The translations under genes and the position numbers were made by a program. This document shows positions 972-18,830 of a stretch of DNA of 20,678 nucleotides, piece by piece; position 1 is the stretch's first letter; each line of letters begins with the position of its first letter. The notes below the pieces were generated by a model. That model saw only the letters and a list, made by a program, of their open reading frames with translations. It was not told the origin of the DNA and made no database searches. Source of the DNA: a virus (Duplodnaviria > Heunggongvirae > Uroviricota > Caudoviricetes); the IMG/VR virus record IMGVR_UViG_2925939204_000008. The stretch is one strand, 5' to 3'.

Positions 972-1155
972 TTTAGCTATATGGAGTGAAAAATGAATTA
1001 CATATATTCCGCGACTACAAACTCTTTCTATCCGCTGGAGATGAAAGAGGATTACCCCAGCTCGCGGACATCCTTCCCGGTGGGTTCATCAAACTCCAGT
1101 ACGGAGAGTGTCTCACCATGAGCGATAATCGGTTTCTTTAACTCAAGCTCTTTCA

Positions 1156-1512: not shown

Positions 1513-2651
1513 TATGCAGACTCCTCTGAATACTGAAGACGGAACTGGTTAACCACGGCAAAAACACGCAACTGGTTAACATAGTCAGGCGGGAACAGCG
1601 TGTTCAGGCGGTTCGGATCGCTGGCATCACGCTCAACAACCAGGTACTGCTTAAACAGTTCGTAGTTTTCCACGATCCCCGCACACTCAAGCTGACGGTA
1701 GGTTGCCAGCAGTTCCCCTTTGATTACCGCCGGGGTGACAATCGCCTGACCGGGACCAAAGCGGGTACCGTCGCTGGCAAGCTTGTGACGCCCGTACTTA
1801 CTGGTAATGACGGATTTCAGTTTGCGCAGTACATACGCACTGGTATGCAGCGTCTCGCTGTCGAGGTAGCTGTTATCCGCAACCCCGTAAGCATTTTTCC
1901 TGTACGTGGTGACATCACGCTGAATGCGCACCAGCGTGTTAACGGAGGCCGTGTCGTTGAACGGCAGACCGATATAATCAAACGGCTCATCCGCCATTGC
2001 AGCCACCGCGCCGGTGAGAACCGGAGCGCCCGTTCCGGCGGTCCCCGTCGCCACGGCAATCTGTACGCCCGCTGGCAGCACTTCACCCCCACCGAAGCCG
2101 TAGTAATTGAGGCTGACAGGAATTTCATTCCCGCAAAGCCCCTTATGACGCGCGGTCAGCGTGACAACACCAGCCGAAGATGAAGCTGTAAACGGCAGAG
2201 TCGGAACGGCATTGATGGCATCCTGGATACTGCTGGCAATCGTCGTGACGTTATCGCCGTTGGTCACCGGAGCCTGCACACGGGTACGTCCCACATAGAC
2301 ATTCACCGTGCCGCTTTCGGTTGCTTCCCCGGTCACCGTCAGCGTAACCGTTGCCGCCGCGCCTGTGGCTTCCGGAACGGCAATCACATACAGCTCGCCA
2401 AACGGGTCAGTCTGGCGATAAGCCTCGACCATACGCGCCAGCTGACTTCCCGCACCACAAATCTGGCGTGCATAGTCTGCCGACGGCATCAGCACCAGGC
2501 TGTTGGCAACAATCTCTGCACCGTTATTGGCATGACCAATCAGCAGCGATGCTCCGCTGTCCTGTGCAGTATTCGCCGCCGAGTTATCCATTTCCGCATA
2601 AAACAGCGGAACCAGCGTATTCGACGGAATGGTGTTAAAGCTTATCGTCAT
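1512..2651 (-). CDS. Putative contractile-tail sheath protein (Mu gpL-like)
   Basis: 379-aa ORF, Gly/Thr/Val-rich beta-type composition, tightly coupled to the 118-aa downstream gene; sheath-tube pairing inferred from order and size. Confidence 0.55.
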   Translation of the reverse strand: MTISFNTIPSNTLVPLFYAEMDNSAANTAQDSGASLLIGHANNGAEIVANSLVLMPSADYARQICGAGSQLARMVEAYRQTDPFGELYVIAVPEATGAAATVTLTVTGEATESGTVNVYVGRTRVQAPVTNGDNVTTIASSIQDAINAVPTLPFTASSSAGVVTLTARHKGLCGNEIPVSLNYYGFGGGEVLPAGVQIAVATGTAGTGAPVLTGAVAAMADEPFDYIGLPFNDTASVNTLVRIQRDVTTYRKNAYGVADNSYLDSETLHTSAYVLRKLKSVITSKYGRHKLASDGTRFGPGQAIVTPAVIKGELLATYRQLECAGIVENYELFKQYLVVERDASDPNRLNTLFPPDYVNQLRVFAVVNQFRLQYSEESA

Positions 2652-2805
2652 CGGTGTTCACCTTTTTATTCACGCGCCGGATATCACCCGCGGCTTCACG
2701 GCGCAGCCAGTAGTTGTTCTCGTCAACATTTCGCCCTTCGGCGGGCAAAAGGTCGCCGCGGGCAGGGTCAGGCACTGACCGCCCTTTAACAGGTTTCACA
2801 AACAT
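2635..2805 (-). CDS. Small conserved phage protein (56 aa) between terminase and sheath genes
   Basis: Not in the ORF track; ATG at 2805 lies 8 nt after the terminase stop and the ORF overlaps the sheath start by 17 nt; translation MFVKPVKGRSVPDPARGDLLPAEGRNVDENNYWLRREAAGDIRRVNKKVNTDDDKL. Confidence 0.4.
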   Translation of the reverse strand: MFVKPVKGRSVPDPARGDLLPAEGRNVDENNYWLRREAAGDIRRVNKKVNTDDDKL

Positions 2806-2813
2806 GATGATTC

Positions 2814-3944
2814 TCAGGAAGGAAGGGTTATTTCGGTGTGATGTTCGATATCGCCGTCAGGCCCGTTACCGGGATCGAGATAATCAACATCAATCGCCAG
2901 CGTTCGCAGTTCATCTAGACTGTTCAGGTCATCCTGCTGGCGGGTATCGTCTTCAGTCAGCTCGCTGATGACCGAAAAATCGAACTGATAAATCAGCTCA
3001 TGACGATTCAGATCCAGCAGCGTACCGCCGTCATAGGTAATCGGGTTACCGCACGCTTCCGGGTTAGCTTTTTCCAGCACCTGTGGGTCGGTCCAGTCGT
3101 CACCTTCGTCAACGGTATAGATGATCCCGAACAGTTCATCGTTGGGTACCGACCCGTTGAGCATCTCGATAACTTCCCGCCGCTTGTCGTAGCACGGCCC
3201 CTCAATGTTGTACCCGGCAGTAGTAATGGCCCACATCAGTGGCTGACGTCGCGCCCCCATCCCGGTAAGCATCGTGGTGTAAAGCGCGTCGGTGGCGTGC
3301 TCGTGATATTCATCCACCACCGCACAGTGGGGTGATGATCCATCACCGGGGTTACCGATCAGCGGTTCAAACCGCGCGCCATCCTCCGGACGGTTCATGT
3401 TTGAGGCGTTAACCTCAATCCCGAACGCTTCCGTCAGCATGGGTGTGCGTTTACACATCAGTCGCGCCGGGCGAAAGACTTCCCACGCCTGTTTCTCTGT
3501 CGTGGCACCGGAATACACTTCCGCGCCAAACTCGTTATCACAGGCAAAACAATACAGGGCGACACCGGCAGAGATTGCCGATTTGCCGTTCTTACGGGGA
3601 ATTTCGGTATACACCTCCCGGAAGCGGCGCAGCCGGATACCTTTATTGACCCAGCCAAACGCACAGCAGATCACAAAGAGCTGCCACGGCTCCAGCGTGA
3701 TGGGCATCCTCTTGAATGCCCACTCCCCCTTGGTGTGCGGCAACAGTTGAATAAATTTGGCGGCCCGTTCAGCCAGGTCCTTGTCGAAGCGGTAACGAAA
3801 CGACTTACTTTTTTCCGCCATCAGGTCATCAAGATGGCGCTGGCAGGCCTGAATCACAAACTGGCAGGCCACAATCTTTCCGCGCACGACATCACGGGCA
3901 TACTGATTGGCAGCATTTACGTTGGGGTAAGATTTCCGGCTCAT
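2814..3944 (-). CDS. Phage terminase large subunit, ATPase domain only (truncated; nuclease domain missing)
   Basis: Walker A-like PRKNGKS, Walker B-like [14 protein letters not shown] motif; 376 aa is too short for a full TerL and the C-terminal ~70 aa is an acidic low-complexity tail. Confidence 0.7.
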
Positions 3945-4406
3945 GACTCGATGATTTTCAGAAACGGGTTAGTGGCTTTCTTCTGCCCCGCCAGGCCAAT
4001 CAGACGCTGGCGGCTGCTGGGGTCGAGTCCGAGCATTGCCCCCGTGCTGCTCATCTCGGACTCCTGTTCTTTTTTGGCGGTCAGCTCCGGATTTTTGACC
4101 CTGCCGCCCATTGCACCGGTGATGGTGTTGCCCTGTATCAGGAAGAGACACAAAGACGCCATTTGCAGACTGCGCCACAGCGTCAGCAATGAAGTGAGTT
4201 CCACCTGCACGTTGCAAAATCATTGCCCATCCCAGCGGGAAAATCTGATCGCCATCGGCACGAAGGCGGTTAAATAATGCGTTCTCTGTTACATCCAGCC
4301 AGTCAGCAGCTTCAGCGTACCCCCCCGGCAACGCTGCGATAGTTTTTCTGACAGCTTTCACGTACCACTCAGGCTGTTTTTCTACTTTCCAGTGATGCTT
4401 ACCCAC
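3941..4406 (-). pseudogene. Frameshifted small DNA-binding gene upstream of terminase large subunit (terminase small subunit-like or CII-like)
   Basis: N-terminal part in ORF 3969..4406 (HTH-like GGYAEAADWLDVTENALFNRL) turns to low-complexity read-through; C-terminal part in the +1 frame (3941..4210) ends in an ATGA overlap with the terminase start; frames swap around 4110-4170. Confidence 0.45.
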
Positions 4407-4659
4407 GGTTCACCTCCTGTTCCTGTGGTTTAAACCCATTCTGGTTTTGGCTAGATTGAAAACGTGCCGGATAAAGAATCTGCATTTCGCTGACTTCACC
4501 CTTAAAAAAATTGGCTAAACGTTCTGCAAGCTCGATAGATGGAATCTGCTCCAGCCTCTCAATACGACTCAACGTCGCTGGATTGACTTGAACACCCGCA
4601 GCAACATGCTGCAAAGTGAAACCATGCGCCTTACGCACATTTCGTAATGGTGATTGCAT
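4399..4659 (-). CDS. Cro-like HTH (XRE family) DNA-binding protein
   Basis: 86-aa ORF with HTH (FTLQHVAAGVQVNPATLSRIE), divergent from the CI-like repressor across a 97-bp operator-containing intergenic region. Confidence 0.7.
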   Translation of the reverse strand: MQSPLRNVRKAHGFTLQHVAAGVQVNPATLSRIERLEQIPSIELAERLANFFKGEVSEMQILYPARFQSSQNQNGFKPQEQEVNRG

Positions 4660-4673
4660 ACGCCCTCCAAATA

Positions 4674-4736
4674 TTGCGCGTTATGCATGTTATTTCACGC
4701 AATTATTTTGCGCAAGTTGATTTGCTTATCACGCAA
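4674..4736. promoter_or_regulatory. Operator region of the cI-like/cro-like divergent pair (TTGCG..CGCAA palindromes)
   Basis: TTGCGCG-N15-CACGCAA (4674-4702), perfect palindrome TTGCGCAA (4708-4715), TTTGC-N7-CGCAA (4722-4736), all between the two divergent start codons. Confidence 0.45.
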
Positions 4737-4756
4737 TAAAGAAATGTAATAAACGC

Positions 4757-5449
4757 ATGAACATAGGAAACCGAGTCAGACAACTTCGCCAAGCGAAGAA
4801 CATGAAAATCGCCGATCTCGCTGAAGCGATAGGAGTAGATGCGGCGAACATCTCGCGCTTAGAAACGGGTAAGCAAAAACAATTTACCGAACAAACACTG
4901 AGTAATATTGCCAAGAGCTTAGGTGTTGATATTGCTGATCTCTTTACCTCTGCCCACAAAAGTAATACTGTATATAAAAACAGTAATAATGAGGATGTTG
5001 CGCAGGTGAAGGATGTGTTCCGTATTGAAATGCTGGATATCAGTGCCAGTGCGGGAAATGGCCTTATCCAGGGCGGTGATGTCATTGATGTGATTCATGC
5101 CATCGAATACAGAACTGATAATGCTGTATCAATGTTCGGCGGACGACCAGCCAATCACATCAAAGTTATCAACGTTCGTGGGGACAGTATGTGTCCAACC
5201 ATTGAGCCAGGAGATCTCATCTTCGTTGATGTCAGCATCAATCAGTTTGATGGTGATGGTATATATGTCTTTGGTTTTGATGACAAAATATACGTTAAAA
5301 GACTTCAAATGATTCCTGACAAACTGCTGGTGATTTCTGATAACCAGATTTACCGTGAATGGGGAATTACTAGCGAAAACGAACACCGATTCATGGTCTT
5401 TGGAAAGGTCTTAATCAGTCAGTCGCAAACCCTTAAGAGACATAATTAA
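4757..5449 (+). CDS. CI-like phage repressor, N-terminal HTH plus C-terminal LexA-like S24 peptidase domain
   Basis: 230 aa; N-terminal HTH (MKIADLAEAIGVDAANISRLETG); C-terminal S24 signature GDSM (Ser) and downstream KRL (Lys). Confidence 0.85.
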   Translation: MNIGNRVRQLRQAKNMKIADLAEAIGVDAANISRLETGKQKQFTEQTLSNIAKSLGVDIADLFTSAHKSNTVYKNSNNEDVAQVKDVFRIEMLDISASAGNGLIQGGDVIDVIHAIEYRTDNAVSMFGGRPANHIKVINVRGDSMCPTIEPGDLIFVDVSINQFDGDGIYVFGFDDKIYVKRLQMIPDKLLVISDNQIYREWGITSENEHRFMVFGKVLISQSQTLKRHN

Positions 5450-5468
5450 CCTCAATATCCCATCCATC

Positions 5469-5491
5469 GGCCACCGAAAGGTGGCTTTTTA
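5469..5491 (+). terminator. Rho-independent terminator after the repressor gene
   Basis: GC stem GCCACC / GGTGGC with GAAA loop followed by TTTTTA. Confidence 0.7.
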
Positions 5492-5502
5492 TTACCTATA
5501 AA

Positions 5503-5540
5503 TTTGCATATATAGCAAATATAACTTGCATATCTCGCAA
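5503..5540. promoter_or_regulatory. Two operator-like palindromes (TTTGC-N7-GCAAA and TTGC-N7-GCAA) upstream of the xis-int operon
   Basis: TTTGCATATATAGCAAA (5503-5519) and TTGCATATCTCGCAA (5526-5540) share the TTGC/GCAA half-sites seen in the cI-cro intergenic region. Confidence 0.4.
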
Positions 5541-5845
5541 TTTAATTTTATCTTTTGTTCCAGACCAACTACAGGATTACAACAAAATCTGGTTGCAACA
5601 CGGTGCATGTGTCGTAAGCAGTCAGTAAATGTCAAAAACGAACAGGCAGGACGCCCACGAAGTAGCCGCCTGGGGCATATGAAGTCCAGGATGATTCGTT
5701 AGCAACAAAAAAGCGCCCTACAGGACGCTTAGCTCTTTAACAATCTGGTCCCCATCAACAAGTAACTGATAACTTGAGGAGACCTTGAAAACGTCAATAT
5801 CACTCACTGGGCAGTAATGCCAAAAGCACCGGAGGCTGGAGCATA

Positions 5846-6151
5846 ATGACCACTTTTACCGACAAAGAACTGATTAAAGAAATTAAAGAGCGTATCAGCA
5901 GCCTTGACGTGCGAGACGATATTGAGCGCCGTGCTTATGAAATCGCACTCCTATCTCTGGAAGTAGAACCAGATGAACGCGAAGCTTATGAATTATTCAT
6001 GGAAAAGCGTTTCGGTGACTTAGTAGATCGTCGGAGAGCAAAAAACGGCGATAACGAATACATGGCATGGGATATGACTCTCGGTTGGATCGTCTGGCAG
6101 CAACGAGCAGGTATCCATTTTTCAACAATGTCACAACAAGAGGTGAAATAA
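5846..6151 (+). CDS. Hypothetical protein (101 aa), translationally coupled to xis
   Basis: ORF with acidic helical composition; stop TAA overlaps the xis ATG (TAATG at 6149-6153). Confidence 0.5.
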   Translation: MTTFTDKELIKEIKERISSLDVRDDIERRAYEIALLSLEVEPDEREAYELFMEKRFGDLVDRRRAKNGDNEYMAWDMTLGWIVWQQRAGIHFSTMSQQEVK

Positions 6152-6501
6152 TGGAGCCATACAGCCTCACACTCGATGAGGCCTGTCATTTTCTCAAGAT
6201 ATCCAGACCGACTGCCATTAACTGGATACGCACAGGGCGTCTTCAGGCAACACGCAAAGATCCCACTAAGAATAAATCTCCTTACCTCACAACACGACAA
6301 GCCTGCATTGCGGCTCTTCAGTCTCCGCTGCATACTGTCCAGGTGAGCGCGGGTGATGGCATAACAGAGGAAAGAAAATGTCACTCTTCCGCAGAGGTGA
6401 AATATGGTACGCCAGTTTCACATTGCCGAACGGTAAAAGATTTAAACAGTCTCTTGGAACAAAGGACAAAAGGCAGGCGACAGAACTCCATGACAAGCTA
6501 A
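6151..6501 (+). CDS. xis: Excisionase / AlpA-like DNA-binding protein
   Basis: [33 protein letters not shown] is a typical excisionase HTH; start chosen at the ATG at 6151; reading frame stays open to 6501, overlapping the int start by 124 nt, so the true end is uncertain. Confidence 0.65.
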
Positions 6502-7541
6502 AGGCTGAAGCATGGCGGGTCAGCAAACTTGGTGAAATACCTGATATAACGTTCGAGGAAGCGTGTGTCAGGTGGCTTGAAGAGAAAGCACATAAAAAAT
6601 CGCTGGACGATGACAAAAGCCGGATCGGATTCTGGCTTCAACATTTCGCAGGAATGCAACTAAGAGACATTACTGAATCAAAAATTTATTCAGCAATGCA
6701 GAAAATGACGAACCGGCGTCATGAGGAAAACTGGAAACTCAGGGCAGAAGCATGCAGAAAAAAAGGGAAACCTGTTCCAGAATACACGCCAAAACCAGCG
6801 TCCGTTGCAACGAAGGCTACGCATCTTTCATTTATAAAGGCCCTACTAAGAGCCGCAGAGCGTGAATGGAAAATGCTGGATAAGGCACCAATTATTAAAG
6901 TGCCTCAACCAAAGAATAAACGGATCCGCTGGCTGGAGCCCCATGAAGCACAAAGGCTGATTGATGAATGTCCGGAGCCATTAAAGTCTGTTGTTGAATT
7001 TGCACTGGCAACAGGCTTAAGACGCTCGAACATCATCAACCTTGAATGGCAACAAATAGATATGCAGCGCCGGGTGGCATGGATAAACCCGGAAGAGAGT
7101 AAATCAAACCGCGCAATTGGCGTTGCGCTGAATGATACTGCATGTCGCGTATTGAAAAAACAAATCGGGAATCATCACCGTTGGGTATTTGTGTACAAGG
7201 AAAGCTGTACCAAACCAGACGGAACGAAAGCGCCAACAGTAAGGAAGATGCGGTATGACGCAAACACAGCCTGGAAAGCGGCGCTGAGACGGGCTGGTAT
7301 TGATGATTTCAGATTTCACGACTTGAGACACACCTGGGCAAGTTGGCTGGTTCAAGCCGGAGTCCCGTTGTCAGTGTTACAGGAAATGGGAGGCTGGGAG
7401 TCTATCGAAATGGTTCGTCGATATGCTCACCTTGCACCTAATCACCTTACCGAACACGCACGGCAAATAGACTCGATCCTGAACCCATCGGTCCCAAATT
7501 TGTCCCAGTCAAAAAATAAGGAAGGTACTAATGATGTGTAA
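6378..7541 (+). CDS. int: Tyrosine recombinase, phage integrase (e14 IntE-like)
   Basis: 387 aa; N-terminus [14 protein letters not shown]; catalytic-type motifs HDLRHTWAS and VRRYAHL; good RBS GAGGAAAG. Confidence 0.9.
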
Positions 7542-7713
7542 CTTATTGATTTTAATGGTGCCGATAATAGGAGTGTAACACGCGATAAATCTTGTGTTCG
7601 GGTCTTCTTCTACGACCTTCGCAACTACCTGATTTAACGATTTTTACGCACACTGATAATCTGGCATTCATCATGCACATGATAAACGCCCCTAAACTTT
7701 AACGGGGTGGAAA

Positions 7714-8937
7714 ATGAAATACAAGCCGGATCAATACATCATATCTGATAGTTACGGAGTTTATTACGTCAGGATTTCAATTCCTGTATGGCTTCGTAAT
7801 GCATTTGGTGGAAGAAAAACTCTCGTCCGTAGTCTGAACACTTCCGATCTTCGTGTGGCTCGTAGGAAGCGTGATGTTATAGCCGACGAATTTCACCACA
7901 TCAGGCAAATTGCAGAGCCGCCAAAACCGGACAGCTTGCAGGACACGATCAGCTTTTTAAAGAGCGTGGCTAAGTACGCGAAAGCTGCCCCGAAAGCATC
8001 AGCTCCGATTATCTACCAATGCCCCTCTCTGAATAAGATGTTAGAGATTTACCTCACGCATAACGCTGATCGCCTGAAAATGGGAACATTAAGCAAGACC
8101 AGAAAAGCCGTTGAACTGTTCCTGAATTACCTGCGAAAGAAGGATGTTGAACTAAACGATATCAACCGTACCACCGTTACAGGCTGGCTTGATCATCTCC
8201 GAGAGACAAAGGCAGTCCAGACAGTGGCTAACTACCTATCAGCAATGGCAAACATTCTCGATCTTGCCTCTTCCCGATACCAGGACGCCCCACCGCTGGA
8301 AACTAACGTGTTCAGGGGGCATAAACTCAACACAGCGCAGAGCCGCCAGAGTTACGAGGCATTCACGGACGAAGAAATTACGAAGCTCATTAGCACGTTT
8401 AACAAGTTAGGAGAGGACGAATTAAGGGATGTGAGCGCCATCGCCGCTTATAGCGGAATGCGCATCAATGAAATAGCCAGTTTGAAATCTGACAATATCC
8501 GTGAAGTTGAGGGGGTGTTATGTTTCGAGGTGACGGAGGGTAAGACACGCAATGCGGCGCGGTTGGTTCCACTTCATAGTGCGATTAGAAAAATGGTTCT
8601 GGAACGCTGCCAGAAGCCGCACAACGGCTTTTTATTCTACCGTGCAAGTGTGACCAAGAGACAGGACGGCAAGCGCTCCTCATGGCACGTAAACCGCTTT
8701 GGACGGCTTAAACGCGATATTCTCCCAGGGCAGGAAAACAAGGTGTTTCACTCGTACCGCCATGCAGTGATCAGTAAGCTAAACGCCGCCGGAGTGGATG
8801 AATCTCGTATTGCCTTGCTCGCGGGTCACTCATTTGGAGAAACTGAGTCTTTCAAGACGTATTCGAAGAGTGTTCCTGAGCGTATTATGAAGGAGTTAGC
8901 GGGGTATATTGAATTAATAAATTACAACGTCCAGTAA
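7714..8937 (+). CDS. int: Tyrosine recombinase, integrase of genomic-island type
   Basis: 407 aa; C-terminal catalytic region with HSYRHAVIS and a downstream Tyr; long N-terminal arm/core-binding region. Confidence 0.85.
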   Translation: MKYKPDQYIISDSYGVYYVRISIPVWLRNAFGGRKTLVRSLNTSDLRVARRKRDVIADEFHHIRQIAEPPKPDSLQDTISFLKSVAKYAKAAPKASAPIIYQCPSLNKMLEIYLTHNADRLKMGTLSKTRKAVELFLNYLRKKDVELNDINRTTVTGWLDHLRETKAVQTVANYLSAMANILDLASSRYQDAPPLETNVFRGHKLNTAQSRQSYEAFTDEEITKLISTFNKLGEDELRDVSAIAAYSGMRINEIASLKSDNIREVEGVLCFEVTEGKTRNAARLVPLHSAIRKMVLERCQKPHNGFLFYRASVTKRQDGKRSSWHVNRFGRLKRDILPGQENKVFHSYRHAVISKLNAAGVDESRIALLAGHSFGETESFKTYSKSVPERIMKELAGYIELINYNVQ

Positions 8938-9584: not shown

Positions 9585-11435
9585 TCATCCCCCTGTGGAT
9601 GACTGACCGCTCAAGGCTGATAGCGTAAGGCTACGAGTGAATGAATCCGCACTCGCTTTTGCAGACCAGTCGATATAGTCAGACAATCGAGAAACATCAC
9701 TTTGCAGAGTCAATCCCACTTGTGGATTCACTTGTAGGTTGAATATCGGGTTCAACGTGTACGCTGGCGCGTTGCTGCTGTTGAGCGACATTGCCGAAGC
9801 ACGGAGATTTTCCCCTGAAAGGCTGTATTGATTAGTCGCTGTCCCTGCTTGCTGATTACCAACGCCCAACCAATCCATGATAGCCGGAGCCACTGAACGG
9901 GTATCAAACCCCGTTTTATCCTGAATCCAATCGGCCGTAGCATTCGCAGAGCCACCCACAGCACCATCATAAAGATTTTGAACAGCAGGTTTCTTAGTAT
10001 CGCTAAACCATTCAGGGTGTTGTTGGCGGAGAGTACTGTTAAGATCAGACACTACGCTGGAGATTTCTCCAACAAAGCCCGTCACCTGTTTAGCCAGGTC
10101 GCCTAATCCCTCTCCGAGCATACCAGCAGATTCTGTTATCACTTTGGTGTTCTTCACCAGGTCGTCACCACCATCAGCAAAGCCTTTCATAAAGCCTGTA
10201 AACATGCTGTTATCAACGCCATTCATGAGATTACCCATCGCTACACTCAGATCACCATATGCAAGAGTTTGCTTGATCTGCTCCTCGTTAAGAGTTTGAC
10301 CACTATCGACAAGCTGTTTCAGCGTCTTGTTATATTCTGCACCGTTGTTCATGAACATATCGGTGTAGTGCATCAGGTCATCACCTAAACTCTCTATAAG
10401 CGTACCAATCTGAGCCTGTGACATACCACGGCGTTGCCCTTCATTGGTAACTGCTTGAAGTAGATCAGCAGGACGATCCTGGAAGGATTTAATCTGTTCT
10501 TTGCCCCATCCAAACTTATTCATAATAGAAGTGATACCACCATCGCCGCCTTTCCATTCGCCATTTTTAAACTGGCTATCGTTCAGGGTCATAGCGATAC
10601 GTTCACGTACATCTTTGAAATTGTCCGTCACTTTATCGACATTGGCGCTATCAACTCCGTGTTGCTGCCCCCATGCCACCATCGTTTTAACTACGTTAGG
10701 ATTAGTCTTAACAAGTTCCGATTTTCTAACCAAGTCAAGATTTTCATTCCCTTTGTCAACAATTCGCTGCCCCACTCCGAGGGAGCCAGCCGTTAACGCA
10801 AGGCTTCCTAATACCCCACCACCGACGATAGGAGCATTCCCGCCCTTCTGAGCCTTTAGCTTAGTGGCTGCTGCGGCATACTGGGTACGCTGTGCCTGTG
10901 TCACTTTCGCTTGTTGTGCGGCTTCTCTGCGTAACAGGGTTACACGCTCGCGTATAAGCGCATTCATACGTTGAGAGCTAATATTCCCCTTCGCAAACTC
11001 TTCGCTTTGCTGATGAATATAACGTAACGCTTCATACTGAGATTTAGGATCAAGCCCGTATTTACCTTTAATTCCTGACACTTGTAGCCCTGCATGGCGA
11101 AGTTTAAGCTCGGCTGTCTCTTGGCGCTTCTGTAGCTGCTGCTTCGCTTTCAGATTGGCCTTTTCATCCCTGGCTTTCTGCTTCTCCGCCGCACGTTGGG
11201 CTTTCATTTCCTTCGTATCACGAGGCTTATCATTAAAACGTGCATCATCGGCTTGTTGACGGGCTTTCTGTCTGCGCTGCTTCAGATCCTGGAAGCGAAT
11301 CTTGGGATCGGCTATTTTCTGGAAGTGCTTTTGAAGGTTATCCGCTGCGGCCTTAGCCTCTGCAATACTCCCTTTGTCAACGGTGAAAGTTACGGTGTTG
11401 ACGATCTTACTTGTATTAATCTCAAGCATCGCCAC
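9585..11435 (-). CDS. Large structural-type protein, tape-measure-like (coiled-coil N-terminus, Gly-rich hydrophobic segments)
   Basis: 616 aa; K/R/Q/E-rich coiled-coil N-terminus then APIVGGGVLGSLALTAGSLGVG-type segments; GTG at 11435 or ATG at 11429 as start; function inferred from composition only. Confidence 0.4.
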   Translation of the reverse strand: MAMLEINTSKIVNTVTFTVDKGSIAEAKAAADNLQKHFQKIADPKIRFQDLKQRRQKARQQADDARFNDKPRDTKEMKAQRAAEKQKARDEKANLKAKQQLQKRQETAELKLRHAGLQVSGIKGKYGLDPKSQYEALRYIHQQSEEFAKGNISSQRMNALIRERVTLLRREAAQQAKVTQAQRTQYAAAATKLKAQKGGNAPIVGGGVLGSLALTAGSLGVGQRIVDKGNENLDLVRKSELVKTNPNVVKTMVAWGQQHGVDSANVDKVTDNFKDVRERIAMTLNDSQFKNGEWKGGDGGITSIMNKFGWGKEQIKSFQDRPADLLQAVTNEGQRRGMSQAQIGTLIESLGDDLMHYTDMFMNNGAEYNKTLKQLVDSGQTLNEEQIKQTLAYGDLSVAMGNLMNGVDNSMFTGFMKGFADGGDDLVKNTKVITESAGMLGEGLGDLAKQVTGFVGEISSVVSDLNSTLRQQHPEWFSDTKKPAVQNLYDGAVGGSANATADWIQDKTGFDTRSVAPAIMDWLGVGNQQAGTATNQYSLSGENLRASAMSLNSSNAPAYTLNPIFNLQVNPQVGLTLQSDVSRLSDYIDWSAKASADSFTRSLTLSALSGQSSTGG

Positions 11436-11619
11436 CGCCTTTTTTACTCACCAGATAATTAAGTGCATCTGATACACTACGCCCACGATGTAATAACTGA
11501 CGTAGATGACCGTGATCTATTTCAAGCACACGACACACTCCCGCCAGATTTAATAACTCTTCTGCTGTTTCAGCATTTACGGCGAGGTGAAGCCCCGCGC
11601 TTTTTACAATCACTTGCAT
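11422..11619 (-). CDS. Hypothetical small protein (65 aa)
   Basis: ATG with upstream GAGGAAAG; overlaps the start of the 616-aa gene by 14 nt. Confidence 0.45.
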   Translation of the reverse strand: MQVIVKSAGLHLAVNAETAEELLNLAGVCRVLEIDHGHLRQLLHRGRSVSDALNYLVSKKGGGDA

Positions 11620-11738
11620 TTATCTTTCCTCATTCTGGAAATAAAAAAGGGCGGGAACACTGGGGAGATGTTCCCAACGTTCACACGCCCTATTCAATAG
11701 CCTGATTATTTCCAGCGGGTCAGGCTCCCGCTTGCTCA

Positions 11739-12770
11739 TTAAGCAGTGATGGTGATCTTCACCTGCATACCTAACGCATGGTTCACTGGTAATGCGCTGT
11801 TTTCGTGCATAACGTGGTAAGCATCGCCGCGCTCGCTCAGGTAGCCCCAAGAGTAGTATTCAGCAGGTGCAGCATCGATCAGCGCAAAGTTACCAGAGGC
11901 AGCGCCGTAGATGTTCTGATAAGCATTTGTGCCTTTACTGAACACCGGAACCGCCACCATGTCAGCATCATCTGGCATCTGTGCAAGGATCAGCGGATCT
12001 GTCACTTTAACAATGTCGATAGGCGCACCAGGTAGGCTAAACGTACTAACACCAGGGAGAAGCTCGTGACGCTGGTAGAATAGGTTACGGTCGTCATATG
12101 GCGCTACATACTGGAACGCCTTAGACATACTGTCAGAGAAGCGAATCTGGCTAAATGCAGCAGGTTTAGCGAATACGATCACTCGTTCAATCTGTCCAGC
12201 CAATCCACCTGCGGCAGCCTGAACTTTGTCTAAGATCGCATCAAAATCCTGTGCCGCTGTCGCTGTGCTCACGCTGGCTGTCATTGGCACCACACCGAAC
12301 AGTTCAGCATAAGAGATCAGTAGGTCATCAGTTGCAGGCGTATAAACTTCACCTTTGAACAGAGCACGGGCCAGGTAAGACTCACGGGTACGCAGATAAG
12401 CAATCTTATGTTTGCCAGTGTATTCGGTGTACAGGTCGGTAACGGTTTGCTCGTAGTCCGTTCCCTGCACTCTGCGGCCTTGTACGTCTACAGGTTTAAA
12501 CTCATCTTCCCTTGCAAACCAAGGAATCTCGATAAGGTATTCTTTGCCATTCTGACGCGCGGTAGTGTCGTGGTTTGATGAATAACGGCTCTGCGGGGTG
12601 TTAAACAGGCTGTAGTTATCATCCAGAAGCTGTGTCACCACCACTTTCGGATTCTGAACACCTACCCCGTCGAATAGGTCGAGGGCATTCATAAGATAGT
12701 TACGTTCCGGCAGAGCCTGGAAGATTGGCGCTAAATCGACCATCTCACGCCCAATTGCGATTTTACTCAT
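11739..12770 (-). CDS. Putative major capsid protein (lambda gpE-like size and position)
   Basis: 343 aa (lambda gpE is 341 aa), directly downstream of a ~119-aa gene as in the lambda D-E pair; assignment from size, order and composition, not from confirmed similarity. Confidence 0.45.
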   Translation of the reverse strand: MSKIAIGREMVDLAPIFQALPERNYLMNALDLFDGVGVQNPKVVVTQLLDDNYSLFNTPQSRYSSNHDTTARQNGKEYLIEIPWFAREDEFKPVDVQGRRVQGTDYEQTVTDLYTEYTGKHKIAYLRTRESYLARALFKGEVYTPATDDLLISYAELFGVVPMTASVSTATAAQDFDAILDKVQAAAGGLAGQIERVIVFAKPAAFSQIRFSDSMSKAFQYVAPYDDRNLFYQRHELLPGVSTFSLPGAPIDIVKVTDPLILAQMPDDADMVAVPVFSKGTNAYQNIYGAASGNFALIDAAPAEYYSWGYLSERGDAYHVMHENSALPVNHALGMQVKITITA

Positions 12771-12786
12771 TATTTATCTTCCTTGA

Positions 12787-13146
12787 TTAAGAGGTGAAGA
12801 ATGGACGGCATACGAACCCTTTGGATTCGAGCGTGGTGATAGCTGCGGCGTGATTAGCTGCGTGCAGGTTGTCGGCTTTCAGTGCTACGAAGCTACCAAC
12901 ATTAGGCGCACGTAGGACATTCACGGTTTTACCGTCGCCAGCACTCACGAAATCACTTACCACCACAAAGGCATCATCGCCGGAGGTGTATAGAGCGCCA
13001 TCAGCGCCGATAACATCGCCGCATTCAATATCTGCTGGCAGGTCGAAAACACGGCCTTCTACGACTGCAAAAGAATCAGTGGCGTAGCTCAATACGTCAG
13101 TGAAACTCTTACGAATTGGGAAAAGTTCGGTTAGGTCTACAATCAT
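12787..13146 (-). CDS. Putative head decoration or small capsid-associated protein (gpD-like position)
   Basis: 119 aa, Gly/Ala/Val-rich, immediately upstream of the capsid-like gene. Confidence 0.3.
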   Translation of the reverse strand: MIVDLTELFPIRKSFTDVLSYATDSFAVVEGRVFDLPADIECGDVIGADGALYTSGDDAFVVVSDFVSAGDGKTVNVLRAPNVGSFVALKADNLHAANHAAAITTLESKGFVCRPFFTS

Positions 13147-13358
13147 TGTTGTTTGATTTCCTTGGATTTGATTGCGATCCGTTCCTGCATACTAAGTTGA
13201 GGTGTGTCCTCAGAAGGGAAATACTGGTCTACAGCTTTTTCTATTTCTTCAACGGTACATCCTGCCATTTCAGCCACTTTAGCTATTAACTCAGGATTAA
13301 CTTGAATCACTTCGGATTTGTATTTTAGGATTCGGTCGCGATTGTTTATTAAGAACAT
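13143..13358 (-). CDS. Hypothetical small protein (71 aa), first gene of the structural operon
   Basis: ATG at 13358 preceded by GAAGGAA; stop overlaps the next start (ATGA at 13143-13146). Confidence 0.45.
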   Translation of the reverse strand: MFLINNRDRILKYKSEVIQVNPELIAKVAEMAGCTVEEIEKAVDQYFPSEDTPQLSMQERIAIKSKEIKQQ

Positions 13359-13433
13359 TGTGTTGTTCCTTCGCGTTATAACTGCGTTTATCCTTCCATT
13401 GATAACGGAAGTGTTACATGCAGATTGTTAAAA

Positions 13434-13451
13434 AGGGGCGATTAAGCCCCT
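13434..13451 (-). terminator. Intrinsic terminator on the minus strand between the regulatory and structural operons
   Basis: Minus-strand RNA AGGGGC-UUAAUC-GCCCCU followed by UUUU. Confidence 0.45.
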
Positions 13452-14024
13452 GGAGAATATGCCCTTGTTAGAAAGCATTCTGTTAAAATCATTTTCGTTT
13501 CGGAGGATTATGATGTTAAAGAATGGCTTCTTGAAAAAATGAAGGGCGCAACTGTTACGAATAACAGAAGTAGGATCGCCCGTCATTGCTCCCACTTCAA
13601 AACAGAAGCCCTTCTGTCATGGCGAGAAGTGGGAATGGAATCTCAATATCACCACTGGAATAGTAATAAGAGATTGCCAGCCTGAACGTAACTACCGCTG
13701 ACGGCGTTTATTCAGTCTGACTACATTCATCCTAACGGAATGAATGAGCAAAGAGCGAATGCCCTTTCTGAAAAAGTCGGAGATGCGCGGTGATTGCGAT
13801 GCAATACCAACACAACGAGATATTACATCCCGCGCATTCCTTCGGAACAAACAAGACAAAGAACCAACACTTTCAGAAATAGCATTCAGAGGGAGAGAAT
13901 GCCGCTATGGGAACGGCATTCTCAAGGAGTGCGTATTGACATACGAGGGTGAAGTGATTCGAATACTTACCCTATAACTCATTATGACACATATAGCACA
14001 TAATGTCAAGACATTTAGTAACTT

Positions 14025-14363
14025 TTATGTTATGGCGCATTCTTCCGCGATCTGGATGGAAAGCTCTCCGAGTTCAACGGTGATGTATTGCAGAGAGCAA
14101 GCAAGCTCCTCAAGGTCATTAGCTACACGCCACGCTTCTTCTGGTGTGATCGAACTGCCGTCACGCTGCACCAAACGAGCTACAGACGTTTGCAGATGTT
14201 CAAGGGCAGTGATTGCCTGTTCAGTGTATTGCACCGCTTCCAGAAGCGCGGAGGGCGTTCTCTCACGCCACGCTGCATTAACAAGCTGTAAGGTTGGTAA
14301 ATGCCAGTTGTCGTGGAAAGAGTTAATTAGGGTGTTCACTGTGTCCATAGTTTTATTATTCAT
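14025..14363 (-). CDS. Hypothetical protein (112 aa from the ATG at 14363)
   Basis: ORF track gives 14025..14459; the ATG at 14363 overlaps the upstream stop (14356-14358) and is the likelier start. Confidence 0.45.
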   Translation of the reverse strand: MNNKTMDTVNTLINSFHDNWHLPTLQLVNAAWRERTPSALLEAVQYTEQAITALEHLQTSVARLVQRDGSSITPEEAWRVANDLEELACSLQYITVELGELSIQIAEECAIT

Positions 14364-14739
14364 TGTTTTCCTTGTCGTCAAAGAGAATATCAAACTCTTG
14401 TGTGTGCTGGGATAGCCCCCAGGTTTGACAATACCCAATATAATCGGCGTAATGTTCAAATCCTGCTATTTGCCATTTCTTGAGATGGCTACTATCTATA
14501 ATATATTCGCGTCTGCGTCGTGGTTTGTAATAAACGTTATCCGTTGACGATAGAACATCCTGCAATAGTTCAAACTCTAATCCATTTGGTACTACTGCGG
14601 GATATTCTTTAATAGTTGTCACCATCTCACCAGGAATAGACTCTCGTGCGAGGTCTTGTAGAGAAGAGGTGTATTTACGTTTGCTGATGCGTGTGGCTTT
14701 TTCGATTCTAACAAGGTTACTTCGTTCTTTTCGTCCCAT
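14356..14739 (-). CDS. Hypothetical protein (127 aa)
   Basis: ORF in operon context; basic N-terminus; no recognisable motif. Confidence 0.45.
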   Translation of the reverse strand: MGRKERSNLVRIEKATRISKRKYTSSLQDLARESIPGEMVTTIKEYPAVVPNGLEFELLQDVLSSTDNVYYKPRRRREYIIDSSHLKKWQIAGFEHYADYIGYCQTWGLSQHTQEFDILFDDKENNE

Positions 14740-14843
14740 TCATTCCTCGTAGAGGGGAAACTCCTTGTCTGGTTATAACGTAAACGCCATAGAATATGGT
14801 GAACCACCATAAAGCAGTAATCATAAAAGTTTCCCGATTGTTG

Positions 14844-15305
14844 TTATTTAGTCGTAAGTGTAATGTCGCATCCTTTACCGCGACCAGGTTTGATTAACGT
14901 AGTAGTTAGATAATCATTGCGGCGAAGCTTGCGAATCGCACTGGATACAGTTGCCACACTTATCCCCAACACTATCGCTATTGACTCCTGTTTCACATTT
15001 GTTAATGATGGCAGTGATTCGAGGTGCATTAATACCAGACGTTCCGAAGGAGACAGATTCTTATCGTGAAGATGTGGGGATGTCATTTTACATTCTATCT
15101 CTTTCGGTGGCTTCATCGCTGCATTGAATAGCGTAACAAGAGCATTAGCGTAACTTGATTCACCTCGCTCAGCGTAAACATCTACAAGTTCTTGCGCTTG
15201 TTCGAATGCAACACCTCTTTCAACTTCTGGATTTAATAAACTGGCAAGATGGATGATGTTAAGATCACGTTCGTTGTATTGTTTGGGTATAACCGTTTTC
15301 AGCAT
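14844..15305 (-). CDS. Winged-helix (MarR-like) DNA-binding protein
   Basis: C-terminal wHTH-like LSPSERLVLMHLESLPSLTNVKQESIAIVLGISVATVSSAIRKL. Confidence 0.5.
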   Translation of the reverse strand: MLKTVIPKQYNERDLNIIHLASLLNPEVERGVAFEQAQELVDVYAERGESSYANALVTLFNAAMKPPKEIECKMTSPHLHDKNLSPSERLVLMHLESLPSLTNVKQESIAIVLGISVATVSSAIRKLRRNDYLTTTLIKPGRGKGCDITLTTK

Positions 15306-16039
15306 AAATGTTCTATTTCCTCGTAGATTGGTTTAAGTTTTGGATTCTTCTCTGTGTCCAGGTATCCGTTAATAAGTAGCCATCTGATTTTCGGATGTTG
15401 TGAAACTGGTAGATTCTTTTCAGGATTCTCCCATTCATCCCGATAACCCTCAAGAAAGTTTAAATTAACTGGCTCTATCTTAATATCTTTAGCTGGAATG
15501 GAGGCGGGTTTCTTCGTAGGCATTTTCTTTGGCTTCTCCGGCTTCGGATCTGCTTTGGCCTCTTCTGGCACTGACTGCTGTTTTTCTTCCTCTGGCGCTA
15601 CGTCTTCTTTAGCTTTGCCAAACACGGGATGTTTCAGACAATCTACCCATTCCGGCGCGGAATCACGTTCCATCGCATTACGATCACGTTCAAAGGTGAA
15701 GTTTTGCGGCGTGAGTGGCGTTATAGTCCATTGGTTAGAGCGCTTTGGCTTATTACTGGCGATCAGTCCGATTTTCTTCAACTTTGCAACAATACGTGTT
15801 GCCGTAGCCGAGCTGACACCAATACTTGCACCAAGTTGATCAATGTCATCGTAATAAGTACCGCCCAACTCTATCGCAAAGCGATAATAACGATGGCGCA
15901 TTCTGACGTAAAACTGCTTATCAGCAGGAGACAGGGACTCTGTTACGCCTGTTTTAAGATTGGTGATCCTGGTGCATTCGTTAAATGCGTCTTCGGTGTT
16001 GGTGAAACTAAAAGCCTTACTGTTTATAATGTCAGTCAT
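15299..16039 (-). CDS. DNA-binding protein with lambda O-like architecture (N-terminal wHTH, K/P/E-rich linker, C-terminal domain); possible replication initiator
   Basis: SPADKQFYVRMRHRYYRFAIELGG...GVSSATATRIVAKLKKIGLI resembles the replication protein O N-domain by recall; long low-complexity linker. Confidence 0.4.
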   Translation of the reverse strand: MTDIINSKAFSFTNTEDAFNECTRITNLKTGVTESLSPADKQFYVRMRHRYYRFAIELGGTYYDDIDQLGASIGVSSATATRIVAKLKKIGLIASNKPKRSNQWTITPLTPQNFTFERDRNAMERDSAPEWVDCLKHPVFGKAKEDVAPEEEKQQSVPEEAKADPKPEKPKKMPTKKPASIPAKDIKIEPVNLNFLEGYRDEWENPEKNLPVSQHPKIRWLLINGYLDTEKNPKLKPIYEEIEHLC

Positions 16040-16053
16040 GTTAGGGTGTATCC

Positions 16054-16230
16054 TTATTTGGTAGAACGTTCTCCGTTCTTAATTGATGTGGAAAGTGTGG
16101 TTGCAGCGTCAATTAACATCTCCTGCACTGTTACGCCTCTCGCTCGCGCCTCTTTGAACAAAGTACTAAACACTTCATCCGGCAGTTTTACGAATGTTCC
16201 GGCTGGTTTCTTCTTCTGGATTTCGCTCAT
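16054..16230 (-). CDS. Ribbon-helix-helix (Arc/CopG-like) DNA-binding protein, 58 aa, not in the ORF track
   Basis: ATG at 16230 preceded by AAGGAG; MSEIQKKKPAGTFVKLPDEVFSTLFKEARARGVTVQEMLIDAATTL has a beta-strand then two helices as in RHH repressors. Confidence 0.5.
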   Translation of the reverse strand: MSEIQKKKPAGTFVKLPDEVFSTLFKEARARGVTVQEMLIDAATTLSTSIKNGERSTK

Positions 16231-16248
16231 TTGGTTTCTCCTTCTGGT

Positions 16249-16497
16249 TTATTCGTTGGTGGTGGTTTCAGCCTGTTCAGCTTTCCATTGATCGTAAAGT
16301 TCGATTCCTTTACGCAATCTTTCAGCGTGTTCGAAATATCCTTGCCGTTGTGCGGCTGCTCGCTGGCTGTTTATTGCATTTCGCGTCTGGCTTCCGGCCT
16401 TTAAAGCCTCGAAGACAAGTTCTGGATTAAAATACTTAATTTTGGTTCTCCTTGCGTTAGAAACACAGAAACACCATCCAGGGAGAACGTTAATCAC
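16249..16497 (-). CDS. Hypothetical protein, first ORF of the regulatory operon (start uncertain)
   Basis: ORF track uses a GTG start at 16497; an ATT codon with AAGGAG 7 nt upstream is an alternative. Confidence 0.35.
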   Translation of the reverse strand: MINVLPGWCFCVSNARRTKIKYFNPELVFEALKAGSQTRNAINSQRAAAQRQGYFEHAERLRKGIELYDQWKAEQAETTTNE

Positions 16498-16592
16498 GTT
16501 GCCTGATAGTGCGGTGTAAGTTGGATTGTTTGCGTTAGGCTGGATGCCTGAGATGAGGACGGGATGAATGCTTTCATTACCCTACATCATTT

Positions 16593-16672
16593 ACTTTAAC
16601 ATGAAATGATTTAAGTGTCAACACTTATTTAAATCCCTTTCAAATTATAGCGCATTTCCACGTTGTGATCAA
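16593..16672 (-). promoter_or_regulatory. Two tandem sigma70-like promoters directed into the minus-strand regulatory operon
   Basis: TTGATC (16667-16672) 17 nt TATAAT (16644-16649), and TTGACA (16616-16621) 17 nt TAAAGT (16593-16598), read on the minus strand. Confidence 0.4.
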
Positions 16673-17223
16673 CTCATTCATGTCATCATAAAACGCGGTC
16701 TATCGCTTTCTAACAGGTTTGAAAGCCTGAGAGTTGCAATCCCCTCCCTATCCTCTCAAATTCGCTCTCAGCGCGTCTGGGGCGTTCCGTTTGCGTTACC
16801 GCCGCCCTCTGGCACTTACTCCCGAAACCAATAGCACAACTACTGAGGGATAACGTTAGTTATCAGGATAGTAGGTGATGGTATTGGATTGAGGCTGGAT
16901 GAACTGGAGCCATCAGCGACCAGTGAATCCTTAGCCGTGGGCTAACTTTGCATGGATGAATGCGGAGCATGGAAGACAGGCAGAAGTTATGCTGAAAGAC
17001 ATTGCGCACACGGCGCATAGCTTCTGTGCCTCGTTTCACGAGGGCGAAGCCCTGGCACAATCACAGACAGATGCGCTACGCTGCGTCGTGAGCGGCTGAC
17101 CGAGTAGCCCCCAAAGGCGAATCAGGTCACTTGCCAGGCGATACGCGCCAGCAAAGCGAATCTTTAACAAGATCTTCTAAAAGCTCTCTTTTAGAGATCG
17201 CTTTTAGAATCTCTTTGTATAGA

Positions 17224-17305
17224 ACATCAATTTGATGTGTAGTTTGCCGATCCATACATCAATTTGATGCGTATCCCATGCATCTATACATCATTTTGAT
17301 GTATA
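17224..17305. repeat. Three 18-bp direct repeats at exactly 32-bp spacing, each with an internal palindrome ACATCAA(t)TTGATGT
   Basis: ACATCAATTTGATGTGTA (17224-17241), ACATCAATTTGATGCGTA (17256-17273), ACATCATTTTGATGTATA (17288-17305). Confidence 0.8.
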
Positions 17306-18061
17306 ACGCCCCCAACTAACTCTGATTCATCCATGCAACAACACTAAGAGTAACGAGAGGTTATTCCTATCAAAACAACACGATAATCATAGCTAAGCCT
17401 ATCTTAAATGACAGGTAAAGATTGCCGTTGTTACATGGGTAAAGTTGCCATAGTCAGCAAGATAGTAACCATCACTCACTTTGCGTAAAGCCTTGCGCCA
17501 TGCGGCTCACAGCGATCATTGTCCACAATGAGGAGTTTCATGACAGGTGCAATGTGCTGAACGAGTTTTCTAAAATGAAACGATGTTTCTTTTTCATGCC
17601 AAAATCCACCAATTGATTAGCATTCTAATCATTTCATTACACACTCAGTTTCAAGTGCATAAACTCCGCATAATTTGTGCATACAGGCAGGTTAGCCCCG
17701 CCCTCGCCTAACAACCTTACATTTATCAGATTTAAATCAATGAGATAGACAATAACCACACACAAGCATTGGTAGTGTGATGTTCCGCTGTTGCCGCTGT
17801 TCTTCGTGCAGAGTTGAGGATTTGGCAATGTTCAAACACATGTTTATAAATGCCAACATCATGATTTTGTTCAAGATATTTAGAGGAGAAGAAATTTTCG
17901 ATCTGGAGGCGGCCCTGGAGGTCGTTAAGCACTGGACGCAATCGCGCCATTTACCACACACAAGACAGTTCGATTTTTGATCATTTATATTGCAACTTAC
18001 TGAAATTGATCATATTGTTTGTTTCGTTGAGTTTAGATGTGTGTCTTTATGGGAGGGTAAA

Positions 18062-18622
18062 TTGAACAGAGCAGTAGTGTTAGACGAACAGCAAGCCAAA
18101 GCGATCAGGGAGTGGCTAAACGCTCATAACAAGAGCCTGATAGCTGACGTTACGTTAATGATGCAAGCCGCTGTACTGCGTGTGGGGGATGCCGTAGCGT
18201 TACGCTTCGACGAAGTGATCAACGGTGAGATTGACATAGAAGAACAGAAGACAGGGAAGCGTAAAGCCCTCACTCTCCCTGCTCCAGTGGTGCAGATGAT
18301 TGCTCGTCGCCGTGCTGAGTATCCGCATGATGTGCATGTGTTCAGAAGCCAGCGTAACCGATCAATGAACAAGCAAGCGCCTGTACGACGCGAAGAAGTG
18401 AGCAAGCAGATCGCAGAGGCCGCTAAAGCTATCGGTATTCATGGCACTGTATCAGCTCACAGCTTCCGCAAAGCTGGCGGGAATGCCATCTACAAGCGTT
18501 CAGCAAACAACATCGCTTTAGCTATGACCGTGCTTAATCACAGCAACATCACTGACACCAGGCGCTATCTGGATTTAGACAAGCAAGCCGTTAGCCGTGT
18601 GATCAATGAGATGGACTTATAA
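18062..18622 (+). CDS. Small tyrosine recombinase, catalytic domain only (FimB/FimE-sized or truncated integrase)
   Basis: ORF open from 17990; likely start TTG at 18062 after GGGAGGG, or GTG at 18041; motifs ALRFDEV, HSFRKAGG and TRRYLDL fit the R...H-x-x-R...Y catalytic pattern. Confidence 0.65.
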   Translation: MNRAVVLDEQQAKAIREWLNAHNKSLIADVTLMMQAAVLRVGDAVALRFDEVINGEIDIEEQKTGKRKALTLPAPVVQMIARRRAEYPHDVHVFRSQRNRSMNKQAPVRREEVSKQIAEAAKAIGIHGTVSAHSFRKAGGNAIYKRSANNIALAMTVLNHSNITDTRRYLDLDKQAVSRVINEMDL

Positions 18623-18632
18623 GGAGATACGC

Positions 18633-18830
18633 ATGAAACGCTTGCTTGTGCTGACGCTGACAGTAATGCCAGTCCTGGCGAATGCCGGACAGATAACCCT
18701 GATTCTCAGTGACGAACAGGAGACAGACAACGCGAAGATTTGCGTTTATTCCAACGCCAACTTTACGGAGACAGTGACGCTCAGGCCGTCGCAGCAATGC
18801 CGCTACACAATGACCTTTGAAGAGGAGTAA
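18633..18830 (+). CDS. Small secreted or periplasmic protein with signal peptide (65-aa precursor)
   Basis: ATG at 18633 with AAGGAGA 5 nt upstream and 10 nt after the recombinase stop; MKRLLVLTLTVMPVLANA signal-like N-terminus; two Cys in the mature part. Confidence 0.5.
   Translation: MKRLLVLTLTVMPVLANAGQITLILSDEQETDNAKICVYSNANFTETVTLRPSQQCRYTMTFEEE

Follow-up and report, generated by a model that had tools for sequence, protein, structure and literature searches.

The DNA analysed here (20,678 nucleotides, hereafter the window; IMG/VR virus record IMGVR_UViG_2925939204_000008) is Escherichia coli chromosome with 99.9% identity to strain AR_0128 (window coordinate = L001 coordinate minus 3501), and it carries an island of ~13.7 kb whose left edge is a 19-nt fragment of thrW at 7556-7574 and whose right edge is the intact thrW, ~580 bp past the window end. 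We investigated an array of three palindromic repeats at 17224-17305 inside this island, ~9.6 kb from its left end and ~4 kb from the thrW end, together with the island protein that may read it. The island is arranged in the order int2, a leftward operon, a 1.5-kb gap, the gene for a 186-aa tyrosine recombinase and a few accessory genes. The operon runs from 16497 to 9585 and encodes an 82-aa protein, a 58-aa protein, a 246-aa winged-helix protein, a 153-aa HTH_36 protein, several proteins of unknown type, a capsid protein and a 616-aa protein. The repeats are located in the gap, a stretch of 1.5 kb (16498-18061) that holds no annotated gene.

The sequence ACATCAWTTTGATGYRTA is present in three copies that start at 17224, 17256 and 17288, are spaced by exactly 32 bp and have no counterpart elsewhere in the window. 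An earlier note on this DNA had reported three 18-bp palindrome-containing repeats in exact 32-bp phase, and we confirmed them at 17224-17241, 17256-17273 and 17288-17305; the 18-nt units read ACATCAATTTGATGTGTA, ACATCAATTTGATGCGTA and ACATCATTTTGATGTATA. Every copy includes a 15-bp palindrome, ACATCA-WTT-TGATGY, with 6-bp arms (ACATCA/TGATGT). The palindrome of the first copy is ACATCAATTTGATGT (17224-17238) and starts 7 nt past a conserved A+T-rich anchor, the second copy (ACATCAATTTGATGC) starts 32 bp after the first, and the third carries ACATCATTTTGATGT. When the 20.7-kb window was searched with ACATCAWTTTGATGT at up to 3 mismatches, 7 strand-matches were obtained, 6 of them at the three repeat sites, and the same search of shuffled sequences gave 1.9 ± 1.35 matches, with none of 100 shuffles reaching 7. 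The motif is confined to such arrays in 67 fetched loci, and the array is found in 8 of 5,426 complete E. coli genomes, once per genome; it is not a common dispersed repeat, a possibility that the earlier note had raised. The repeat array is real and non-random.

The array directly follows an A+T-rich tract (17161-17223; GC ~0.32) that has a 13-bp tandem periodicity and two GATC sites and that may serve as an unwinding region, as a factor-binding site or as both. The GC content is 0.32 at 17170-17229, compared with 0.53-0.65 in the preceding 400 bp. The tract contains the inverted repeat TCTAAAAG/CTTTTAGA that the earlier note had placed near 17171-17213, and this repeat is real: its 9-bp arms are TTCTAAAAG at 17175-17183 and CTTTTAGAA at 17201-17209, separated by N17. 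A second haplotype of it, TTTTCAAAG-N17-CTTTGAAAA, occurs in 14 loci, where two double changes preserve complementarity. In locus L002, the A+T-rich tract is 100% identical to that of the window despite different repeats.

Using the conserved tract as an anchor pattern, we retrieved 3 viral and 50 metagenome loci. Among 59 related loci, four classes of palindrome occupy the same position past the conserved A+T-rich tract: class A (ACATCAwTTTGATG, the type found in the window), class B (ACrGGTTTTTCCyGT; ACGGGTTTTTCCCGT), class D (GTGCCAwwTTGwCAC) and class E (CCCTCAwTTTGAGGG), all downstream of the anchor. A fifth, class C (TATCAn4TGATAGGGG), is located beside an A+T-rich tract of its own. In E. 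coli 2023CK-01509, for example, the A+T-rich tract is identical to that of the window over 52 bp and is then followed by four copies of ACGGGTTTTTCCCGT. The distance from the anchor to the first copy is 7 nt in classes A, B and D, and the only spacings among 49 distinct arrays are 32/33 and 42-44 bp, which correspond to three and four helical turns. E. coli MS6192 (L003, 3725-3834) has a four-copy array with an extra 32-bp unit in register, and the copy number in the other relatives ranges from 2 to 5. Judged against four-copy relatives, copies 3 and 4 seem to have fused into the third repeat of the window. The spacers between the repeats show a visible relationship among classes A, B and E (TGCCGAT, TGCCGAA and TGCCAAT are examples), which suggests that the classes go back to a single ancestral array in which the palindrome arms have changed.

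The candidate reader of the array is the 246-aa winged-helix protein encoded at 15299-16039 on the minus strand. It belongs to Pfam family DUF6945, and its PHROG matches are to a 'replication initiation protein' (E 5e-10) and to PHROG 391, 'replication initiation O-like' (E 3.7e-5). A Foldseek search returned the homologous structure 4ro3, of unknown function, as the top match, followed by the RepA_N initiators 4pta, 4pql, 5kbj and 4pt7, a ranking that does not separate an initiator from a regulator. We observed that the repeat class of a locus follows the cluster to which the N-terminal ~130 aa of this protein belong: N1 occurs with class A (19 loci), N2 and N5 with two sub-variants of class D (10 loci), N3 with class B (7 loci) and N4 with class E (3 loci). 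The repeat class is independent of the C-terminal domain of the DUF6945 protein, of its partner, of the 58-aa protein, of int2 and of the small recombinase. Because the loci were chosen by the A+T-rich tract and not by the repeats or the protein, the association was not built in by the sampling.

The C-terminal domain goes instead with the type of the gene that follows, which encodes either a 153-aa HTH_36 protein or a protein of 92-94 aa. Because its type follows that of the C-terminal domain, we propose the 153-aa protein (14844-15305, minus strand) as the partner of the 246-aa protein. The two halves of the DUF6945 protein can be told apart in pairwise comparisons: L010 and L011 have the N-terminal domain and class D repeats in common and differ at the C-terminus, whereas the window and L010 have the C-terminus and the partner in common and differ in the N-terminal domain and the repeats. 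Two loci, L046 and L051, appear at first to break the pairing. Each encodes a different winged-helix protein and carries, ~280 bp upstream of the anchor, a class C unit (an A+T-rich tract plus 5-6 GGGTATCAnnnnTGATAGGGG repeats) that matches the resident initiator; an orphan unit of class A or class B comes after it. We interpret both, from the arrangement of their units, as tandem composite origins, which accounts for the apparent exceptions.

The 58-aa protein (16054-16230, minus strand), which the earlier note had regarded as a ribbon-helix-helix (RHH) protein and had listed among the possible binders, has no family match and does not co-vary with the repeat class. It is 88% identical between a class A island and a class B island, and a single RHH cluster is shared by loci of classes A, B and D; it is therefore not the binder.

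Comparison of the islands showed two conserved blocks, one with the capsid gene (window ~11385-14845) and one with the small recombinase gene and the DNA upstream of it (~17400-18700). The segment between them (~14845-17400) is swapped as a cassette, and the repeats are located at its right edge. In relatives, this slot is occupied by a winged-helix protein matching five PHROG initiator or helicase-loader families or by a DEAD/ResIII helicase. The helicase cassette, an alternative replication module found in L004, L005, L007 and L012, encodes a 485-aa DEAD/ResIII helicase and a 94-aa HTH protein in the slot that corresponds to window positions 14845-17400, and L004 and L007 have short repeats of their own (GCTAAwTACATTCTAAATA) at the position equivalent to that of the iterons.

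From these comparisons of sequence, we consider that the repeats are probably the iteron array of the island's replication origin and that the winged-helix domain at the N-terminus of the DUF6945 protein, the proposed initiator, probably reads them. The island would be an integrative, phage-satellite-like element of ~13.7 kb in thrW, and the array would be the iterons of its vegetative replication origin. Each 15-bp palindrome (ACATC-N5-GATGT) would be bound by a dimer of the 246-aa protein through its N-terminal domain. The palindrome centres lie 32 bp apart (~three helical turns), and the fourth site of the relatives follows 42-44 bp on (~four turns); with this three- and four-turn spacing, the dimers would be placed on one face of the DNA and could build a higher-order complex. 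The proposal in the earlier note that the phasing puts the palindromes on one face for a dimeric protein gains support from the conservation of the spacing across specificity classes and from the co-variation with the N-terminal domain, and the binding itself remains a prediction. The complex would adjoin the 60-bp A+T-rich tract at 17161-17223, where strand opening would start, and the C-terminal domain of the initiator together with the partner protein would recruit host replication factors there. We infer replication from the anatomy of the locus and from the co-variation, because neither circular or attP forms nor a 13-mer or DnaA signal was found.

Several observations weigh against this reading. 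The array of the window does not have the usual fourth (+42-bp) copy. No significant match to the oriC 13-mer consensus was found in the A+T-rich tract, and no DnaA box was found within or beside the array, nor are such boxes enriched in the window. The compensated inverted repeat in the tract could be bound by a protein or form a hairpin, in which case the tract would not be a simple melting region. The fetched loci, metagenome contigs included, contained no excised circular forms, as judged by terminal overlaps and attP junctions. Membership of the protein in the lambda O family was not supported either: no match to PF04492 was obtained at E ≤ 0.01, and a comparison with the O-family alignment by hhalign was not significant (E 0.021, probability 2.3%). 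Retrieval of most loci relied on the conserved tract, and many of them are closely related; the independent switches behind the co-variation are therefore few, about five classes plus a few recombinants. Finally, L030 (anchor at 10952) has class D repeats beside an unrelated 247-aa protein (MTKTIAQIRADYQY...) with no family match, and it is the sole unexplained exception to the pairing.

The main rival to an origin is a purely regulatory operator array, in which the DUF6945 protein would be an ArsR/MarR-type repressor or activator that binds cooperative operators at a nearby promoter, such as that of the structured region described below or that of the small recombinase, and would have no role in replication. 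We regard this as unlikely. An operator that overlaps the promoter of the protein's own operon does not fit, because the two sigma-70-like promoter matches of the leftward replication operon (16593-16672, minus strand; consensus matches only) are ~550-630 bp distant from the repeats. The array itself has 3-5 copies at three- and four-turn spacing, in variable number, beside an A+T-rich tract, and L046 and L051 carry complete units of A+T-rich tract plus repeats in tandem. Like lambda O and the RepA_N initiators, the protein is built of two domains, on a plan with DNA binding at the N-terminus and an interface to a partner or host at the C-terminus, and its C-terminal domain co-varies with a partner; its PHROG matches are initiator families, and the other occupants of the slot are initiator-like or helicase proteins. 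Together with palindromes that converge on an A/T run, arms like those of lambda and the absence of any further copy of the motif, these features lead us to prefer an origin to an operator.

Other functions fit less well. Phased palindrome-containing repeat arrays resemble centromeres of the sopC type, and a small RHH-type protein is encoded nearby; the repeats might accordingly be read as a partition site, bound by an adaptor and segregating an excised episome as sopC or parC arrays do. We consider this very improbable, because no NTPase of the ParA, ParM or TubZ type was found among the island proteins, the RHH protein does not co-vary with the repeat class, and the protein that does co-vary matches initiator families. 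No more credible is a set of recombination sites, whether arm-type sites of int2, sites of the small recombinase, markers of the island ends or an invertible switch. A perfect 14-nt inverted repeat, TTGCATGGATGAAT/ATTCATCCATGCAA (16948-16961 and 17325-17338), does bracket 363 bp that include the repeats, and a tyrosine recombinase of FimB size is encoded 760 bp downstream. In some relatives, this inverted repeat is reduced to cores of 6-8 nt, and its right arm is mutated in L002; because it is not conserved and because ~52 loci are all collinear with none inverted, we rejected a switch operated by the small recombinase. Recombination sites are further opposed by the ends of the island, of which one is at 7556-7574 and the other at the thrW gene outside the window, by the small recombinase, which is 96-99% identical among islands with different repeats, and by E. 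coli XYEH3934, where the int2 upstream region is identical although the module is of the helicase type and neither the anchor nor class A repeats are present. A role as arm sites, as markers of the island ends or as an invertible switch is contradicted by these data. Among the functions listed in the earlier note (iterons, operators or integrase arm-type sites), iterons are favoured because the repeat class follows the O-like N-terminal domain, and arm-type sites are disfavoured because the island ends elsewhere. That the repeats are a neutral tandem duplication is barely conceivable: unequal crossing-over could explain three versus four copies, but position and phasing are kept across five classes, the palindromes have persisted, and a protein domain varies together with the class.

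One of the closest known systems is the origin of phage lambda, and the candidate origin shares with it several dyad-symmetric iterons of 15-19 bp, with arms around a short A/T-rich centre, next to an A+T-rich tract. Lambda O dimers bind iterons beside such a tract (PMC7466680). The class E palindrome CCCTC-ATTTT-GAGGG has the same arms and spacing as the lambda iteron TCCCTC-AAAAC-GAGGGA, and the 5-5-5 palindrome geometry is common to both. As in lambda O, the N-terminal domain would bind as dimers and the C-terminal domain would engage a partner (P in lambda), and in relatives of lambda the N-terminal domain and the iteron specificity also switch together. The two systems differ in that the island repeats are intergenic and ~1.2 kb upstream of the initiator gene, whereas the lambda origin lies inside it; in spacing (32/42 bp, three and four turns, compared with ~20-24 bp); in the partner, which is a small HTH protein and not a P homologue; in the conserved structured non-coding region that adjoins the island origin; and in the initiator, which has no PF04492 match and no significant profile similarity to O.

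In the RepA_N initiators (Pfam PF06970; pSK41/pTZ2162 RepA and PLE RepA), as in the island protein, a winged-helix N-terminal domain is combined with a variable C-terminal domain that is specific for host or partner. RepA_N iterons are semi-palindromes (direct repeats) that converge on an A tract, and the RepA module of the Vibrio cholerae satellite PLE belongs to an integrative phage satellite with its origin in a non-coding region (PMC7145576). Phage-inducible islands of the PICI/SaPI type (e.g., EcCICFT073) resemble the island as small elements at a specific site or tRNA gene with an integrase, a capsid homologue and an iteron origin of their own beside an A+T-rich region, and in PICI origins two sets of iterons flank this region immediately 3′ of the pri-rep primase/helicase initiator (PMC6092414). 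The island, in contrast, has one iteron set, on one side only, upstream of the operon of a winged-helix initiator. Iteron plasmids (F RepE, R6K pi, pSC101 RepA and RK2 TrfA) share phased repeats in variable copy number, an A+T-rich unwinding element and a cognate Rep protein. In those plasmids, Rep monomers bind the iterons, which are direct repeats without symmetry, and Rep dimers bind separate inverted repeats at the rep promoter. In the island, in contrast, each repeat is itself a palindrome, and plasmids in PLSDB match neither the DNA nor the protein.

With this assignment, a probable origin and its initiator are located for an uncharacterised island family whose initiator has so far been annotated only as DUF6945 or as an 'ArsR-type regulator'. 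The literature that we searched contained no mention of 'DUF6945', and no relatives of the origin DNA or of the initiator were found in plasmids (PLSDB) or phages (INPHARED). The island is an element of an ordinary kind from an uncharacterised family, and this family appears to be undescribed. Five repeat classes with matched N-terminal domains on a conserved three- and four-turn scaffold amount to a natural experiment in how winged-helix initiators switch DNA specificity, and the series can be used to address the rise of incompatibility groups in satellites.

A conserved non-coding region of ~470 nt (16700-17167) abuts the A+T-rich tract and appears to have a conserved secondary structure, either as RNA or as single-stranded DNA. 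It is G+C-rich, lies between the promoter region of the operon and the A+T-rich tract, and travels with the winged-helix/iteron modules. Because its indels do not come in threes, the region is not conserved as an open reading frame. Compensatory changes were found in its helices; for example, the three-way junction GUGCC[UCG-UUUCA-CGA][GGGC-GAA-GCCC]GGCAC is replaced by GUGCA[CCG..CGG][GGC..GCC]UGCAC in relatives. A covariance model of the 3′ half, R1, matched the window at 16993-17167 and every iteron-type locus (70-189 bits) and none of the helicase-type loci. In the R1 alignment, which was fitted to the model and favours structure for that reason, 99.6% of cells are paired, compared with 20-51% for slid partners, both sides have changed in 10 of 24 pairs, and the covariation score is 0.198, compared with 0.067 in shuffled alignments, none of 500 of which reached 0.198.

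The plus strand is weakly indicated as the structured strand by the wobble counts (11 U-G cells on the plus strand and no A-C cells) and by the folding z-scores (-2.83 for plus and -2.05 for minus). A search of the 1.5-kb gap against Rfam returned no family, giving just sub-threshold noise from miRNA models on an A+T-rich palindrome; the element beside the origin is flagged here as conserved, structured and absent from Rfam. This element and the inverted repeat of the A+T-rich tract may represent an RNA linked to the origin, a signal for single-strand priming or sites for proteins. A more far-reaching possibility, which we put forward tentatively, is that the repeats are one half of a composite origin of a type undescribed for iteron replicons. 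The element at 16700-17167, which reaches the A+T-rich tract with its compensated inverted repeat, would then act with the initiator as RNA or single-stranded DNA and might provide a primer, an activator transcript or a priming signal, in an undescribed family of capsid-gene-bearing Enterobacteriaceae satellites that exchange origin specificity by swapping initiator N-terminal domains and palindrome arms.

The left end of the island was fixed by comparison with a relative of the element. In E. coli XYEH3934, an island relative joins ordinary chromosome (pao genes) at an identical 19-nt core, and the junction defines the left boundary at 7556-7574. This attL core duplicates 19 nt from the 3′ end of the tRNA-Thr gene thrW. 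The earlier note had suggested that the repeat motif marks both ends of the island and had named empty-site comparison as a means of deciding; this comparison puts the boundary at the thrW core, away from the repeats, and the map of the island is corrected to end at the thrW repeats. The degenerate copy of the motif that had been claimed at 7666-7698 was not upheld, with a local alignment score to the third repeat of 13-15, compared with a maximum of 17 in the window and 14-19 in shuffled sequence. The same stretch is 100% identical upstream of the int2 homologue of XYEH3934, in an island that is of the helicase type and has neither the anchor nor class A repeats; because it is conserved where the repeats are absent, it belongs to the upstream region of int2 and is not a repeat copy.

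The integrase gene int2 itself, which encodes the tyrosine integrase of the island, is located at 7714-8937 on the plus strand. Upstream of it are a separate palindrome, ATCATGCACATGAT (7670-7683), and a 14-nt stretch, CTACGACCTTCGCA (7610-7623), that also occurs, without mismatch, inside tRNA-Thr. The two elements are conserved in XYEH3934 and are possibly parts of an attL arm or of the int2 control region.

The tRNA-Thr, tRNA-Gly and tRNA-Leu genes of E. coli harbour relatives of the island, which also occur in Citrobacter, Pseudenterobacter and Buttiauxella; Klebsiella and Enterobacter are further hosts of the family. Within the island, the region 9585-13358 encodes a lambda-E-type major capsid protein (343 aa) and the 616-aa protein, which is tape-measure-like; no portal or terminase was recognisable among the island proteins. 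The capsid protein has only distant relatives in phages, and BLASTP of this protein and its neighbours against the capsid and decoration proteins of EcCICFT073 detected no similarity. The 82-aa protein, the first of the leftward operon (16249-16497, minus strand), has a C-terminal part of 51 aa that is 94% identical in L002.

The small tyrosine recombinase (186 aa; 18062-18622, plus strand) consists of a catalytic domain only, without an N-terminal DNA-binding domain. Because of its 96-99% identity among islands that differ in their repeats and replication modules, it is not the binder of the repeats; a role in multimer resolution is a guess. Its gene is preceded by ~650 bp of conserved non-coding DNA (17400-18061), in which the direct repeats GGTAAAGATTGCC (17414-17426) and GGTAAAGTTGCC (17438-17449) are located. 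Window positions 1-7555 are a decayed prophage remnant, unrelated to the island and in tandem with it at the same thrW site, which ends in int1 (6378-7541) and contains genes for the tail tube and sheath, truncated terminase genes and XRE/HTH regulators.

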